This document shows, in pieces, positions 19,282-24,000 of a stretch of DNA of 24,000 nucleotides. The DNA comes from an uncultured Methanosarcinales archaeon. GTDB taxonomy: Archaea; Nanobdellota; Nanobdellia; Woesearchaeales; ARS49. The translations under genes were made by a program, and so were the position numbers. The notes beneath the pieces were generated by a model. That model saw only the letters and a list, made by a program, of their open reading frames with translations, had not been told where the DNA came from and made no database searches. The stretch lies in contig CAYGVI010000003.1 of the NCBI GenBank assembly GCA_964353335.1, positions 99,308 through 123,307 on the forward strand, given 5' to 3'. The stretch's first letter is position 1, and each line of letters starts with the position of its first letter.

Positions 19282-20367
19282 ATGCGCGTCGCTATCGTCG
19301 GGGCAGGACCGTCAGGAAGCTATGTAGGCTTCCTCCTTTCAAAAGCCGGTCACGATGTCACAATCTATGAAGACCACGAAAAAATAGGCGAGCCAATAGC
19401 GTGCACAGGCATCGTGACAAAAGCGCTTTTCGACCTTGTTGAATACAGCAAAGACTACATTATCAACGAGCTTGACGGCGTTGACATAATCGGGCCAAAA
19501 GGTGAAAAGCTCCGAATCCCGCTGAAAGAATACGTGCTTTGCAGGAAAAAGTTTGACAATTATCTTGCAAACAAAGCAGGAAATGCAGGTGCAAAAATAC
19601 TGCTCAGCCACAGGTACACCGGAAGGGAATGCAACACCCTAATTTTCAGGCATAACGGACAAATAGTCAAAAAAGAAACAGACATTCTCATCGGCGCAGA
19701 CGGTCCTTTAAGCAAAGTTGCAGAAACTTCAGGGCTTGGTAAAAACAAAAACTTTTACGTCGGCCAGCAGGCGACAATCAAGGCAAAATACGACCAGAAA
19801 ATATTCACAGTCTGGTTCGGCAGCATTGCCCCTGGATTTTTCGCGTGGAGCGTGCCTGAAAATTCAGAGTACTCGCGCATTGGCGTCGCGACAACAAAAG
19901 ACAAGAACTGCGCACAATGCTTCCAGAGACTGATGAAAATGTCAAAAGGAAAAATCACAGCAAGGCAGGCAGCACCAATCCCGTTGTACAACCATAAAAG
20001 AAAAGTGCAGAACAACAGCACTTTCCTTGTCGGAGACGCAGCCGGATTTGTAAAAGACACAACAGGTGGTGGAATCATCACAGGAATGCTCTCAAGCAAA
20101 GCCCTTGCTGAAAGCATAATCCGCAAAACAAGCTACGAAAAGAACCTCAAGAAGCTGAGAAAAGAGCTTTGGCTTCACAGCAAGCTCAGGAGGATGCTTA
20201 ACAGATTCTCAGACAATGATTACAGAAGGCTTATCAGGCTGATGTCAAACCAGAAAGTCAGGCGTATATTATATAGCCATCCGAGGGAGTATCCTTCAAG
20301 ATTCCTTCTGAAGCTCCTGCTCGCAGAGCCGCGGCTCATTTATTTCGCAAAGCACGCGTTTGCATAA
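19282..20367 (+). CDS. Geranylgeranyl reductase family FAD-dependent oxidoreductase
   Basis: The N-terminal dinucleotide fold is VAIVGAGPSGSYVGFLLSKAGHDVTIYE. Family motifs are LIGADGPLSKVA and FLVGDAAGFVKDTTGGGIITGM. Confidence 0.9.
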   Translation: MRVAIVGAGPSGSYVGFLLSKAGHDVTIYEDHEKIGEPIACTGIVTKALFDLVEYSKDYIINELDGVDIIGPKGEKLRIPLKEYVLCRKKFDNYLANKAGNAGAKILLSHRYTGRECNTLIFRHNGQIVKKETDILIGADGPLSKVAETSGLGKNKNFYVGQQATIKAKYDQKIFTVWFGSIAPGFFAWSVPENSEYSRIGVATTKDKNCAQCFQRLMKMSKGKITARQAAPIPLYNHKRKVQNNSTFLVGDAAGFVKDTTGGGIITGMLSSKALAESIIRKTSYEKNLKKLRKELWLHSKLRRMLNRFSDNDYRRLIRLMSNQKVRRILYSHPREYPSRFLLKLLLAEPRLIYFAKHAFA

Positions 20368-20421: not shown

Positions 20422-23400
20422 ATGCCTGAAGACGACGAACTTTCAGTTGATTTTGGAAAAGTTGGCGACTGGTTCAAGAGAAAAAAGAAGCCCGAAGCAG
20501 AGCCAACGCCAGAACACCAGCCTTCATTGCTCGCTGACAAGCACGCAGCAGTTCCACACGAGCAGCCAAAAGAGCATTCTGAAGCAAAGCACACTGAAAA
20601 AGATGATGAAATCAGCATTGACTTTTCAAAAATAAAGTCCTGGTTCACAAAAAAGGAGCATTCAGGAAAAGATGAAGGCAAAGAAGACCTCGGATTTGAT
20701 TTCAGCAAGCCGTGGGCATGGATAAAAGCCCACCCCGTCCTGATAATACTCGCAGTCCTCCTGATAATGCAGTTCGTTCCAAACAGGATTGATATTGGCG
20801 GCAAGGACTGGTACATGCCCTGGGGCGGGGTAAGCATGCGCCTAAGGAGCGAAAGCCTGCCAATGACAGACGGCTGGGCAGCGAACCATGTCACAACCCT
20901 GCTCAAGAACCAGCTGGTTGATGCGATTAACAAGCAGTATCCCAACCTTCCTGACGAAAGAAAGCAAAAGCTTGTGAATGATGAATGGGACAAGGTATAC
21001 AAGGAGCAGAAAGCCCAGATTGACCCGCAAATAACTGCTGTCAACCAGCAGATAAAGGAGTTCTGGATGTATGAAGCAGACGGCGTGAAATACACTTACA
21101 TGCCTGACATTGACCCTTACACATACCTAAGATATGCCAGAAACCTGCTTGAGAAAGGCACTTATGCTGACGAAGTGAGGGATGGCACATTAATCGACAA
21201 CCACATGGCCGCGCCCTTGGGTGGCGGGGTAAGCCGCGAGCTGCAGCCATACACTCTCGCAGTGCAGTACAAGATACTGCACATCTTCAGCCCGAAGATT
21301 GACCTTATGCAGGCAGCTTGTTATTTCCCCATAATATTCATCCTGCTCTCGCTGATTCCTGCGTTCTTCATCGGCAGGCGCTTTGCAGGAATGTCAGGCG
21401 GAATCATAACTGCAACAATGGTGGCAATACTGCCTTCAATTATTGTCAGGACAGGCTGGGGCCACGCAGACACTGACGCTTACAACATTTTCTTCCCGCT
21501 CCTGTTGACCTGGCTTTACACGCTGATGATTGATGCAGATGACACCAAAAAGATTATTGGATTGGGCGCATTGTCAGGGCTTGTCACAGGAATTTACGCA
21601 TTTGCCTGGCCTGGCGGCTGGTGGTATGTATTTGACTTCATACTCGCTGCATTCGGAATACTGGTCATAAGCGAAATCGCAAGAAATATCAAGCACAGAC
21701 AGAAGCTGATTGAAATAATAAAGAAGCGCGCAATCCTGTTAATCACTTACCTGGCAGTTTCAGGAATATTTGTAAGCCTGTTTAGAAGCACCACTGAGTT
21801 TTTCAATGCCCCAATGGCGCCATTGGGATTCACAATCATCAAGGCAGCTGCGCATGTAAGCCTCTGGCCAAATGTTTACACAACTGTCGCAGAGCTTAAT
21901 CCCACAGACCTTAACGGCGTTATCGGCTCTGTCGGAGGGTGGCTGTTCTTCTGGATTGCAGTTGCAGGAATGGCAATGCTCCTGATAAAGCGCTCAAACA
22001 ATGAGTGGAAGTTTGACCTCAAGTATGCACCCTTGTTTGTGCTCTGGTTCATCGCAACAATTTACGCGAGCCTTAAGGGAGTGCGTTTCACATTGCTTAT
22101 GGCTCCTGCATTCACAGTCGTGTTCGGAATTGCCATTGGCAGGATTTACAACTGGCTGGTCAGAATCAGCATAAAAGATTTGCACTTGAATGAAATAGTG
22201 GCTCATGCATTGATAATTGTAATGGTGGTGCTGATGCTTTCAGGCCAGGCAAAAAGCGCCTATAACTCCTCAGGAAGCGACATTCCGATAATGAATGACG
22301 CCTGGTGGAGCACACTCACTGCGATAAAGGCAGACTCAAAGCCTGACGCGATAATCAACTCATGGTGGGACTTTGGCCACCACTTCAAGTATATCGCAGA
22401 CCGCGCGGTCACATTTGACGGCGCATCACAAAACACGCCAATGGCGCACTGGATTGGAAGGACTCTGGCAACTAACAATGAAACAGAGGCAGTGGGCATT
22501 TTGAGGATGCTTGACTGCGGCTCCTACTCCGCATTCGATGTGATTAATGCCCAGTTCAATGACCCTGTAAAATCAGTCAATCTTCTCCGCGAAATTATCG
22601 TGGTTGACCGCAAGTCAGCGCTTGCAATACTCGCAAAGGAAGGGGTTAATGAGCAGGAACAGTTATTGAAACTCACACACTGCGACCCGCCAGAAGACTA
22701 CTTCATAGCATCAGGAGACATGATTGGAAAGTCAGGCGTCTGGAGCCACTTTGGCTTCTGGGACTTTGAAAAAGCAAAGCTGTGGACGATTCTGAAGAAC
22801 CAGCCAGAGGAAACCGCAGTGCAGTCAATGATGAACGAGTGGAACTACACCCGCGAACAGGCAGAGCAGGCTTACTTGGATGTGCAGGCATTGGGCAGTG
22901 AAGGCGATGCGAATGCATGGATTTCACCATGGCTTGGCATACTTGGCGAGGCTGTTGACTGCTCAACCCAGAACGACCTGATTGGATGCGGAAATGGTTT
23001 CGTAATCAACACGTCCAACAATGACGCGCGCATCAATACAGGCCAGGGGGTTGGCAAGCCAAAGGTCGTCGTCCAGCTGACAGAAAAAGGCGGATTCTCT
23101 GAAATCAAGTTTAATGACTCAAATACCGCGGTTGGAGTGCTTCTCTATCCGACAGGGCCAGGCGCTTACAAGGCGGTGTTAGGCTCTCCAGAGCTTTTGA
23201 CAAGCATATTTGCCCGCCTTTACTTCCTTGAAGGCCACGGCTTGCAGCACTTCACTGCGTTCAGCCAGCAGAGGGAATTAACAGGCGGCGGAATTTACAC
23301 TTACAAGGTCAACTGGGCAGGCAATGCAACCAAAGTTTTCAGCGGCTTTGAAGCCCTGAAGGCTGCGAAAGAAGCGAACACAACAGAGAAGAAAGTTGAA

Positions 23401-23748
23401 AAGGGCGCAAAGGAAGGCGACACAGTGAGCGTTTACTACATCGGCTCATTGCTTGACGGCAATGTGTTTGACAGCAGCATAAAGGACTGGAAGAAAAAAG
23501 GCATTGCTGCAAATTCCTCATTTGACGACAACGAACTCACAGGGCCATTGTCATTCAAGATAGGCGCAGGACAGGTTATTGAGGGCTTTGATGCAGCAGT
23601 TAGGGGAATGGACATTGGCGACGAGCAGATTGTGCAGATTCCGCCAAAGGCAGCATACGGCCTTGACCCCAAAGCCCACGCCCTCGGCAACCAGACCCTG
23701 AGATTCAAGATTAAGATGGTCCGCATAGATCCCGCCTCAGCCAATTAA
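20422..23748 (+). CDS. aglB: Archaeal oligosaccharyltransferase AglB (STT3 family) fused to a C-terminal FKBP-type peptidyl-prolyl isomerase domain
   Basis: 1108 aa. The multi-TM N-terminal half has an acidic loop motif (GHADTDAYNIFF). The WWDxG catalytic motif is INSWWDFGH (22363-22380). The last 117 aa (23395-23745) read KEGDTVSVYYIGSLLDGNVFDSS...LSFKIGAGQVIEGFDAAVRGMDIGDEQIVQIPPKAAYG...LRFKIKMVRI, a full FKBP signature. The frame is uninterrupted throughout. Confidence 0.9.
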   Translation: MPEDDELSVDFGKVGDWFKRKKKPEAEPTPEHQPSLLADKHAAVPHEQPKEHSEAKHTEKDDEISIDFSKIKSWFTKKEHSGKDEGKEDLGFDFSKPWAWIKAHPVLIILAVLLIMQFVPNRIDIGGKDWYMPWGGVSMRLRSESLPMTDGWAANHVTTLLKNQLVDAINKQYPNLPDERKQKLVNDEWDKVYKEQKAQIDPQITAVNQQIKEFWMYEADGVKYTYMPDIDPYTYLRYARNLLEKGTYADEVRDGTLIDNHMAAPLGGGVSRELQPYTLAVQYKILHIFSPKIDLMQAACYFPIIFILLSLIPAFFIGRRFAGMSGGIITATMVAILPSIIVRTGWGHADTDAYNIFFPLLLTWLYTLMIDADDTKKIIGLGALSGLVTGIYAFAWPGGWWYVFDFILAAFGILVISEIARNIKHRQKLIEIIKKRAILLITYLAVSGIFVSLFRSTTEFFNAPMAPLGFTIIKAAAHVSLWPNVYTTVAELNPTDLNGVIGSVGGWLFFWIAVAGMAMLLIKRSNNEWKFDLKYAPLFVLWFIATIYASLKGVRFTLLMAPAFTVVFGIAIGRIYNWLVRISIKDLHLNEIVAHALIIVMVVLMLSGQAKSAYNSSGSDIPIMNDAWWSTLTAIKADSKPDAIINSWWDFGHHFKYIADRAVTFDGASQNTPMAHWIGRTLATNNETEAVGILRMLDCGSYSAFDVINAQFNDPVKSVNLLREIIVVDRKSALAILAKEGVNEQEQLLKLTHCDPPEDYFIASGDMIGKSGVWSHFGFWDFEKAKLWTILKNQPEETAVQSMMNEWNYTREQAEQAYLDVQALGSEGDANAWISPWLGILGEAVDCSTQNDLIGCGNGFVINTSNNDARINTGQGVGKPKVVVQLTEKGGFSEIKFNDSNTAVGVLLYPTGPGAYKAVLGSPELLTSIFARLYFLEGHGLQHFTAFSQQRELTGGGIYTYKVNWAGNATKVFSGFEALKAAKEANTTEKKVEKGAKEGDTVSVYYIGSLLDGNVFDSSIKDWKKKGIAANSSFDDNELTGPLSFKIGAGQVIEGFDAAVRGMDIGDEQIVQIPPKAAYGLDPKAHALGNQTLRFKIKMVRIDPASAN

Positions 23749-23800: not shown

Positions 23801-24000
23801 ATGGGGAATAAGGTTTTTATCGTGATTGCAGCGTATAATGAGCAGAATTCTGTACCCCAAGTCATCAAGGAACTTCACAAGGCAGGATACAAGGATATTG
23901 TGGTTGTTGATGACGGCAGCAAGGACAAGACTTTCGATGCGGCATTGGATGCAGGCGCAACAGTCCTTCAGCACGTCGTGAACCGCGGACAGGGGGCTGC
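23801..24000 (+). CDS. Family 2 glycosyltransferase (dolichyl-phosphate sugar synthase-like), N-terminal fragment
   Basis: My translation is MGNKVFIVIAAYNEQNSVPQVIKELHKAGYKDIVVVDDGSKDKTFDAALDAGATVLQHVVNRGQGA. It carries the GT2 hallmarks (AYNE, VVDDGSxDxT, NrGqGaA). A TATA (TTAATAAA, 23770-23777) is centred 27.5 nt upstream. The frame runs off the window. Confidence 0.85.
   Translation, partial: MGNKVFIVIAAYNEQNSVPQVIKELHKAGYKDIVVVDDGSKDKTFDAALDAGATVLQHVVNRGQGA

Follow-up and report, generated by a model that had tools for sequence, protein, structure and literature searches.

The window analysed here is a stretch of 24,000 nucleotides from the genome of a DPANN Woesearchaeota (1.1 Mb, 97.9% complete). 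On its forward strand, positions 20422..23748 were translated as a single frame of 1108 amino acids plus stop, encoding an AglB/STT3 oligosaccharyltransferase (OST) with a C-terminal FKBP domain. Upstream on the same strand (19282..20367) lies a gene for an FAD-dependent geranylgeranyl-reductase-like protein, with Pfam matches to FAD_binding_3 and, weakly, GGR_cat; its product is possibly a polyprenol/dolichol reductase, a link to dolichol that we infer. Downstream (23801..24000, forward strand), a gene extending past the window encodes a 230-residue protein (L005:2963-3655), which from its sequence pattern we take to be a GT2-like glycosyltransferase; a small membrane protein gene follows it. 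No conserved partner gene was seen beside aglB in the 21 loci inspected. The FKBP-fused AglB gene gave the only STT3 match in the whole 97.9%-complete genome, and its product would be the cell's single N-oligosaccharyltransferase.

The OST part was identified by Pfam STT3 (PF02516; aa 223-603, E 1.4e-29, 104 bits against a cut-off of 24.5) and STT3-PglB_core (PF21436; aa 645-696, 23.8 bits against a cut-off of 23). An AlphaFold2 model of the full protein (mean pLDDT 90.8, pTM 0.82) has the GT-C fold, followed by a C-terminal mixed alpha/beta domain of the external type, and was matched by Foldseek to PglB (6gxc, 5ogl and 3rce; E 2e-21, TMt 0.66-0.68), to STT3A/B and yeast Stt3 (E 1e-15 to 1e-13), and to AfAglB (E 1e-13). 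The membrane (GT-C) domain (aa 101-611; 20722..22254, forward strand), assigned from the STT3 match, the hydrophobic segments and the Foldseek matches to PglB, includes a long external loop, EL1 (aa 120-298). It is preceded by an N-terminal extension of about 100 residues (20422..20721, forward strand), which according to model and composition is charged (17 K/R, 24 D/E) and predicted to be disordered (pLDDT below 50 at aa 1-83), carries three D-F-x-K...W-F/I motifs, and is presumably cytoplasmic. Similar motifs were also observed in the AglBs of relatives that lack an FKBP domain.

Conservation of the catalytic motifs, all on the forward strand, was read from 118 homologues. The first acidic motif, D229-I-D231 in EL1 (21106..21114), has I230 and D231 invariant and D229 conserved in at least 90%; in the second, D350-T-D352 (21469..21477), both aspartates are invariant, as are T487, T488, V489, A490 and E491 in and next to the TIXE-like motif T488-V-A-E491 in EL5 (21883..21894). 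These three motifs occur in the expected order and were equated by position with the canonical ones, namely the metal- and acceptor-binding acidic motifs of EL1 and EL2 and the TIXE/SVSE-type glutamate of EL5. The WWDFG motif (aa 648-652; 22363..22377), at the start of the external domain, is invariant at W648, W649, D650 and G652, as is S647 just before it. Further downstream, the region D766-M-I-G-K770-S-G-V-W774 (22717..22743; D766, K770, V773 and W774 invariant) can be aligned with the register M(1)-x-x-K(4)-x-x-x-W(8) of a DK/MI hybrid; by its position it is a candidate for the AglB DK motif. Through the DK or MI motif, these enzymes recognise the Ser/Thr at position +2 of a sequon. Taken together, the OST motifs of the fused AglB appear intact. 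The C-terminal globular domain (aa 612-973; 22255..23340, forward strand), assigned as extracytoplasmic from the model and the Foldseek matches, contains four invariant cysteines (C699, C754, C847 and C856), and sister AglBs without a prolyl isomerase (PPIase) domain terminate at its end, at a ...Y-x-W-K-V-D-W motif.

In the protein studied here, the frame continues into a linker of 27 residues (aa 974-1000; 23341..23421, forward strand), predicted from model and alignment to consist of a helix (974-991) and coil, with a pLDDT of 74-81. The linker is rich in K, E, A and T and variable in length (gaps in 92-114 of the 118 homologues at aa 985-991), and it is less conserved than the domains on either side: against four relatives its dN/dS is higher than theirs and its identity lower, at 45-56% in three of the four. 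It leads into an FKBP-type PPIase domain (aa 1001-1103; 23422..23730, forward strand), identified by Pfam, alignment and model, with FKBP_C (PF00254) matching aa 995-1099 (E 2e-19, 70.1 bits against a cut-off of 21.1) over profile positions 4-93 of 94. The initial annotation had placed a complete FKBP domain at 23395-23748, corresponding to aa 992-1108 plus stop, and had described a frame unbroken from the WWDFG region onwards; the single 1108-residue frame with its three Pfam domains bears out both statements, and the peptide strings quoted there are found in the translation. In the model, this part has a pLDDT of about 95 and shows the FKBP fold, in which a beta-sheet (strands at 1001-1010, 1015-1018, 1043-1046, 1068-1073 and 1093-1103) curls around a short helix (1054-1060), and Foldseek matched it to FKBP13 (4nnr, 2pbc; TMt 0.8) and to FKBP25 and FKBP12 (TMt 0.7-0.76).

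Using Y26, F36, D37, V55, I56, W59, Y82, H87 and F99 of FKBP12 as pocket reference, the equivalents are Y1006, F1016, D1017, V1052, I1053, F1056, Y1079, H1086 and F1095. Eight of these nine positions are 90-100% conserved in the 118 sequences: the FKBP12 residue is retained at Y26 and at Y82 and F99 in all 118, at D37 in 117, at F36 in 115, at H87 in 114 and at I56 in 106, and W59 is replaced by phenylalanine in 110 (F1056 here), as in the archaeal MtFKBP17 (PDB 1ix5). The ninth position, V1052, varies between V, L, M and I. The pocket is intact, and we expect the domain to be an active PPIase. Against the closest relative, dN/dS was 0.046 for the FKBP part and 0.091 for the membrane part, with similarly low values in three further relatives; purifying selection on the FKBP part is at least as strong as on the catalytic part.

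The archaeal cytoplasmic FKBPs (MtFKBP17, 1IX5; MjFKBP26, 3PRB; SlyD-like) have two features in common with the fused domain, a 'bulge' inserted behind the F-D-S-S strand and the replacement of W59 by phenylalanine, and are its likely evolutionary source. They differ from it in possessing an IF/flap chaperone insert: the FKBP26_IF profile had no match in the fused domain, in which the stretch between Y1079-G1080 of the A-Y-G turn and the last strand, where an IF insert would lie, is just 13 residues long, whereas it matched the genome's own cytoplasmic FKBP (L002). The fused domain is accordingly classed, by its sequence, as FKBP-type and outside the SlyD/FKBP26-type chaperones, and the absence of the insert points to an isomerase or peptide-binding function rather than to that of a holdase.

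Among homologues in the databases (NCBI, JGI, ENA and Logan assemblies), the best 120, which across aa 640-1108 are 41-90% identical to the fused protein, all contain STT3 as well as FKBP_C by Pfam (PF02516 and PF00254), and in a 93%-identical relative (L006) the frame is intact across the AglB/FKBP junction, with mostly synonymous differences; the chimeric join that had been considered at this position is thereby excluded. In a survey of 401 species genomes of the phylum, the AglB-FKBP fusion was present in at least 35, always with the identical domain order. The point that we consider new is that other, sister Woesearchaeales carry a parvulin or a cyclophilin at the very C-terminal position of AglB that FKBP occupies here. 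Parvulin (Pfam E 1e-26 to 6e-29) was found there in about 24 of the 401 sampled species, and with a parvulin-bearing AglB as query most of the 120 best matches combined STT3 with Rotamase, about two dozen being without Rotamase. Cyclophilin was found at the same position in two AglBs (L032 and L033; E 3e-48 and 3e-44).

The fused PPIase is dispensable in evolution: in the AglB tree, AglBs without a PPIase branch from among those with FKBP or parvulin, also within the family to which this archaeon belongs. When 21 loci (L011-L031) were scanned by phmmer with queries of the FKBP, parvulin and cyclophilin types, no separate PPIase gene was found beside aglB in the 17 of them whose aglB is PPIase-less. 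For a DsbA/thioredoxin domain at the AglB C-terminus, 301 genomes of the order were searched with Thioredoxin_4. Among 150 of the 375 matches, most were frames of about 250 residues, and the two long frames inspected (L036, 1032 aa; L037, 771 aa) are not AglBs, so that such a fusion was not confirmed among them.

The initial annotation had named, as one possible refutation, database evidence of a fusion both common and characterised. The first half applies, as the fusion is common in databases, under automatic names only; for the second, we found no description or characterisation of an AglB/STT3-PPIase fusion in the searchable literature. A glycoproteomics paper on AOA mentions aglB and no isomerase (PMC12153357).

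The initial annotation had further assigned the FKBP domain to the outside of the cell. This placement is supported by the conserved topology of STT3/PglB/AglB, in which FKBP would trail the external globular domain, by the structure matches, and by two further features. The first, which is indirect evidence, concerns sequons: the nine N-x-S/T sequons of the protein, N986 and N1031 in linker and FKBP among them, all lie beyond aa 611, and across the 118 homologues sequons in linker and FKBP are 3.6-fold more frequent than expected from composition, an excess that becomes 2.7-fold when the generic FKBP N-x-T is left out. The sequon N1090-x-T1092 was itself rejected as evidence of glycosylation, N-x-T-L-x-F being a generic FKBP motif that is also present in cytosolic plant and human FKBPs. 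The second feature is the conserved cysteines of the globular domain. From topology, sequon enrichment and cysteines combined, we infer that the FKBP domain is extracytoplasmic.

Among known systems, the closest are the single-subunit AglB/PglB/STT3 enzymes (GT66; C. lari PglB, 3RCE/5OGL/6GXC; A. fulgidus AglB-L, 3WAK/5GMY/7E9S), which have the same Pfam domains, fold, and WWDxG, acidic and TIXE-like motifs, and probably an equivalent DK/MI-type motif; the fused protein adds to these the linker, the FKBP domain and the disordered N-terminal extension. To our knowledge, none of the solved or studied enzymes has a PPIase. In function, the nearest parallels are Ost3/Ost6 and human FKBP11. Ost3/Ost6 (TUSC3/MagT1), the lumenal thioredoxin-like oxidoreductase subunits of the eukaryotic OST, probably tune the folding of substrates in favour of sequon use. 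They too place a folding-related catalytic domain at the OST on the non-cytoplasmic side, a functional analogy only, as they are separate subunits, have disulfides and not prolyl bonds as their targets, and have no homology to FKBP. The bacterial parvulin lipoprotein PrsA of Bacillus and the periplasmic or surface FKBPs FkpA and Mip are likewise PPIases that act on exported proteins outside the cytoplasmic membrane and are anchored against loss, in their case through a lipid or in the form of soluble dimers in the periplasm that bear chaperone arms; we know of none that is coupled to a glycosyltransferase. The only structurally studied FKBP at an OST is human FKBP11 at the Sec61/OST-A translocon (PDB 9N9J), the pocket of which is buried by CCDC134, for which an adaptor role has been proposed and the knockout of which shows no glycosylation defect (PMC12804085). 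FKBP11 resembles the AglB-FKBP arrangement in placing an FKBP fold on the lumenal (topologically external) side beside STT3, and differs from it in being a separate, membrane-anchored protein that is recruited via the ribosome and is unfused to STT3; there is no indication that the arrangement shares descent.

As to function, we consider it reasonably probable that the tethered FKBP aids the folding of newly glycosylated surface proteins, coupled to AglB. Surface proteins would exit the Sec channel unfolded, and AglB would glycosylate their sequons while the chain is still flexible. On its linker of about 27 residues, tied to the end of the external globular domain, FKBP would stay close to the acceptor site, a few nanometres away at most, bind Xaa-Pro segments of the same chains and catalyse their cis/trans isomerisation, which would accelerate slow-folding steps of the freshly glycosylated proteins. 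This would take place in a compartment devoid of ATP, where a soluble enzyme would be lost by diffusion. FKBP may also detain the chain at AglB for so long that more of its sequons are occupied. It would act on the glycosylation substrates, and the hypothesis of a built-in folding helper, put forward in the initial annotation, is strongly reinforced by the parvulins and cyclophilins at the same position in sister lineages. With relatives bearing either of two other, unrelated kinds of PPIase at the same spot, the data suggest a physical coupling between the glycosylation of surface proteins and their folding, and the convergence of three unrelated folds argues that the isomerase property itself is under selection at the AglB C-terminus.

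A bolder reading, speculative and rather unlikely in our estimate, makes prolyl isomerisation a mechanistic part of N-glycosylation in these archaea. The PPIase would set the cis/trans state of sequon-flanking prolines, or hold proline segments unfolded for AglB, and the OST would be a modular 'glyco-foldase' in which the PPIase directly controls sequon occupancy, a solution reached independently with FKBP, parvulin and cyclophilin and foreshadowing the accessory subunits by which the eukaryotic OST is linked to folding.

Alternatively, FKBP could be a non-catalytic binding module, the pocket of which docks a partner such as an S-layer protein, an envelope factor or a loop of AglB itself, and thereby recruits or regulates the OST. 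Pocket conservation would suit ligand binding as well as catalysis, and the buried pocket and proposed adaptor role of FKBP11 provide a precedent (PMC12804085). We regard this as unlikely, since FKBP, parvulin and cyclophilin, being structurally unrelated, share prolyl-directed catalysis and binding and no common docking surface, so that a specific partner interface is improbable as the conserved property; the lack of a conserved partner gene in the inspected aglB loci also speaks against it. Less probable still is that the PPIase helps only AglB's own external domain to fold or to cycle between conformations, for instance by way of prolines located in EL5 or in the globular domain, without acting on substrates. 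The covalent joining of FKBP to AglB and several invariant AglB prolines (P265, P483, P622 and P757) would fit such a role in cis, but close AglB relatives with the same prolines work without a PPIase, and a permanently tethered catalyst for one folding event would be unusual. A cytoplasmic FKBP, requiring an inverted topology or an overlooked extra membrane pass, is highly improbable, as there are no hydrophobic segments beyond aa 611, every solved structure of PglB, AglB or STT3 has on the outside the globular domain that FKBP trails, and the sequon enrichment and invariant cysteines fit the outside. An artefact of assembly or gene calling, through a chimeric junction or through a stop or frameshift overlooked between two genes, is effectively refuted: more than 118 assemblies, independent of one another, show the architecture at identities of 37-95%, and four congeneric genomes retain the frame with mostly synonymous differences.

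N-glycosylation and folding are rivals for the same unfolded chain, a rivalry that eukaryotes manage via accessory OST subunits and ER chaperones. We know of nothing comparable in archaea, where AglB is regarded as a stand-alone enzyme. A lineage-wide AglB-PPIase fusion, re-invented with three unrelated folds, is genetic evidence that the two processes are coupled at the archaeal surface. As a single polypeptide with a removable domain and a mutable pocket, it would also offer a simple system for a direct test of whether a foldase beside the OST alters how fully sequons are occupied or how glycoproteins fold. Finally, these results have a bearing on how envelope proteins may mature in genome-reduced DPANN cells, which have few chaperones and no periplasm, and whose surface mediates contact with the host.

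The AglB-FKBP gene is a single open frame of 1108 codons on the plus strand (20422-23748), in which Pfam detected STT3 (PF02516, aa 223-603, E = 1.4e-29), the STT3/PglB/AglB core domain (aa 645-696) and FKBP_C (PF00254, aa 995-1099, E = 2e-19; 70 bits, cut-off 21), all on the plus strand; the NCBIfam matches, which involved several FKBP families besides archaeal STT3 and PglB, were all sub-threshold. The initial annotation had reported an uninterrupted frame from AglB into FKBP and placed the latter at 23395-23748, which is correct as stated; in the protein, this interval is aa 992-1108, followed by the stop codon. With aa 640-1108 as query, 5.8 billion proteins yielded 921 significant matches. 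The combination of STT3 and FKBP_C, for which the initial annotation had proposed a domain-architecture search, was present as PF02516 and PF00254 in all of the best 120. These come from NCBI, JGI, ENA and Logan assemblies, are 41-90% identical to the query and measure mostly 1000-1200 aa. The frame is also intact in four congeneric genomes. In a codon-level comparison with a 93%-identical relative (L006), dN/dS of the FKBP domain was 0.046 (dS 0.55), lower than that of the membrane domain (0.091), the globular domain (0.147) and the linker (0.172); it was likewise low (0.06-0.17) in three more distant relatives. Given the fusion in 120/120 best homologues and four congeners and the low dN/dS, a chimeric join or a missed stop was excluded for practical purposes. 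The AglB-FKBP fusion is real and conserved.

In the features tested, the protein is a GT66 oligosaccharyltransferase (OST). The OST signature residues are invariant or nearly so in an alignment of 118 homologues (A1), comprising D229-I-D231 of the first external loop, D350-T-D352, T488-V-A-E491, S647-W-W-D-F-G652 and, as a putative DK/MI-type motif by position, D766-M-I-G-K770-S-G-V-W774. An AlphaFold2 model calculated from A1 had a mean pLDDT of 90.8 and a pTM of 0.82, with disorder confined to the first 80-90 residues. Foldseek matched it to PglB (E = 2e-21, TMt 0.66-0.68), human and yeast STT3 and A. fulgidus AglB, and its C-terminal part to FKBP13, FKBP25 and FKBP12 (TMt 0.7-0.8). In the model, the AglB globular domain has its final strands up to about aa 963; a helix (974-991) and coil of lower confidence (pLDDT 74-81) come next, and then the FKBP fold (aa 1001-1103). 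Both the length and the sequence of the linker vary between homologues, which fits a tether. At the opposite end, a charged, disordered extension (aa 1-100; 20422-20721) contains three copies of the motif acidic-x-(S/I)-(V/I)-D-F-x-K-(V/I)-x-x-W-F; similar motifs occur N-terminally in FKBP-less and parvulin-clade relatives (e.g. P0196, P0209, P0212) and thus predate the fusions to prolyl isomerases (PPIases).

The fused domain was of FKBP-type PPIase character in the features tested. Its best PDB sequence matches were wheat FKBP73 domain 1 and archaeal MtFKBP17 (1ix5), and it shares with the latter the 'bulge' insert after the F-D-S-S strand. Of the equivalents of the FKBP12 pocket, Y1006, Y1079 and F1095 are kept in 118/118 sequences, D1017 in 117, F1016 in 115, H1086 in 114 and I1053 in 106; the W59 position is F1056 in 110/118, as in archaeal FKBPs, and the V1052 position varies between V, L, M and I across the 118. 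Judged by these residues, the FKBP pocket is maintained. In archaeal and SlyD-type FKBPs, chaperone activity derives from the IF/flap insert. The AglB-fused FKBP differs from such SlyD/FKBP26-type chaperones in that this insert is absent, with no FKBP26_IF match in Pfam and only 13 residues from the A-Y-G turn to the last strand.

The C-terminal globular domain of AglB, PglB and STT3 is external in every solved structure. From aa 612 onward, the protein has no hydrophobic segment, and all nine of its N-x-S/T sequons lie after aa 611. Over the 118 homologues, sequon density in linker and FKBP was 3.6-fold that expected from composition (2.7-fold on omitting the generic FKBP N-x-T at 1090), as against 0.18-0.38-fold in the membrane part. 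Four cysteines of the external globular domain (C699, C754, C847, C856; about 22516-22989) are invariant in the 118 homologues, which suggests two disulfides, and the genome contains two DsbA-like (Thioredoxin_4) matches, e.g. G000:C7:10319-10798. As the FKBP is appended to a domain known to be external and no hydrophobic segment follows, it very probably lies outside as well, with the sequons, the cysteines and the DsbA-like proteins as indirect support.

For comparison, 401 species-level genomes were sampled from the phylum and searched with aa 640-1108. Matches were obtained in 345 genomes and extended through the FKBP in at least 35 of the 401, all from one order and mainly from the organism's own family and a few further families. 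Among 16 FKBP-less AglB loci taken for inspection, four, from other Woesearchaeales genomes, encode a C-terminal parvulin PPIase (PpiC/Rotamase) where the FKBP would be (Pfam Rotamase_3/Rotamase, E = 1e-26 to 6e-29): L012:1501-4635, L022:1531-4701 and L023:1456-4458 (plus strand), and L024:2907-6095 (minus strand). The remainder stop right after the globular domain or run into acidic or N/S/T-rich low-complexity tails; in the PPIase-less AglBs of L013, L014, L015 and L019 these tails measure 60-100 aa, are full of sequons and may be stalk-like or glycosylated extensions. With one parvulin-bearing AglB as query, most of the best 120 database matches had STT3 and Rotamase, about two dozen being without Rotamase, and about 24 of the 401 genomes had a parvulin match within either a frame of 900 aa or longer or an AglB frame truncated by its contig. 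Cyclophilin matches in 301 genomes of the order were mostly frames of about 200 aa, and included two AglBs with a C-terminal cyclophilin (Pfam Pro_isomerase), of 1120 aa (L032:3577-6936, minus strand, E = 3e-48) and 1311 aa (L033:821-4753, plus strand, E = 3e-44). The outer end of AglB in this order therefore hosts all three unrelated PPIase superfamilies. A C-terminal cyclophilin is also carried by two PMT-like GT-C transferases (PMT_2, protein O-mannosyltransferase type; L034:3303-5951, minus strand; L035:1596-3998, plus strand), so that PPIase tethering may extend beyond the N-glycosylating enzyme. Among the 150 of 375 Thioredoxin_4 matches listed for the order, no DsbA-type domain fused to AglB was found. 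A 1032-aa frame of another genome (G405; L036:696-3791, minus strand), not an AglB, combines CBM_X2 carbohydrate-binding and DsbA-like thioredoxin domains, an unusual secreted oxidoreductase architecture.

A maximum-likelihood tree of 115 AglB cores, with the PPIase removed and five relatives from other orders as root, contained one mostly-FKBP and one mostly-parvulin clade; as the sampled sequences were best hits, it gives no frequencies. PPIase-less enzymes are nested within both clades, and the FKBP-bearing P0107 sits on the parvulin side. This mixing points clearly to repeated gain, loss and exchange of the PPIase module, and its repeated loss shows that it would be helpful rather than essential.

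The source genome (1.10 Mb, 7 contigs, 97.9% complete; window on contig 3) contains no STT3 match other than AglB-FKBP, and two further FKBP-like genes; judged by how the homologues are named, it belongs to a Woesearchaeota-type DPANN archaeon. L002 (967-1782, minus strand, contig 4; FKBP26_IF E = 1e-16) represents the cell's conventional FKBP; it is cytoplasmic and of the archaeal long type, with the IF chaperone insert and a Lys/Glu/Pro/Ala-rich tail. L003 (883-1860, minus strand; 326 aa, Pfam E = 4e-6), which lies on contig 3 at about 27 kb upstream from the window, combines an N-terminal membrane anchor with a degenerate FKBP domain, in which the Y82 equivalent is apparently lost, and with many sequons, and is presumably a second, separately anchored, external FKBP-like protein. 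Directly upstream of aglB, a geranylgeranyl-reductase-like FAD protein (19282-20367, plus strand) may saturate the dolichol/polyprenol carrier. Downstream follow a gene that we take, from its sequence pattern, to resemble a GT2 glycosyltransferase, and one for a small membrane protein; the gene content of the locus suggests surface glycosylation.

Binding and isomerisation of Xaa-Pro bonds are common to FKBP, parvulin and cyclophilin, which share no surface on which one and the same partner could dock. Given this use of three unrelated PPIases, the kept pocket, the purifying selection and the lack of an IF holdase insert, the fused domain is best explained as a working prolyl isomerase. Tethered beside the acceptor site of the sole OST, it would work on chains just exported and glycosylated, either speeding their folding following glycan transfer or keeping them glycosylation-competent and thereby raising occupancy. 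The latter would parallel Ost3/Ost6, thioredoxin-like subunits of eukaryotic OST, for which chain retention raising occupancy has been proposed. Human FKBP11 calls for caution; its pocket is buried in the FKBP11-CCDC134-OST-A structure, where an adaptor role was proposed, and its knockout caused no glycosylation defect (PMC12804085). The interpretation in the initial annotation, an extracytoplasmic PPIase serving as folding helper, is supported, its location and function being inferred.

We know of no studied AglB, PglB or STT3 enzyme with a fused foldase. The initial annotation was aware of no description of the architecture; this holds for the searchable literature, in which we found no AglB/STT3 fused to any PPIase, but public databases already contain such proteins and, where they name them, do so automatically, as 'STT3 domain-containing protein' or 'FKBP-type peptidyl-prolyl cis-trans isomerase [Candidatus Woesearchaeota archaeon]'. 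A glycoproteomics study of ammonia-oxidising archaea discusses aglB and does not mention an isomerase (PMC12153357). AglB-FKBP, apparently unpublished as a fusion, would represent an OST with a built-in accessory foldase, a function predicted from its sequence.
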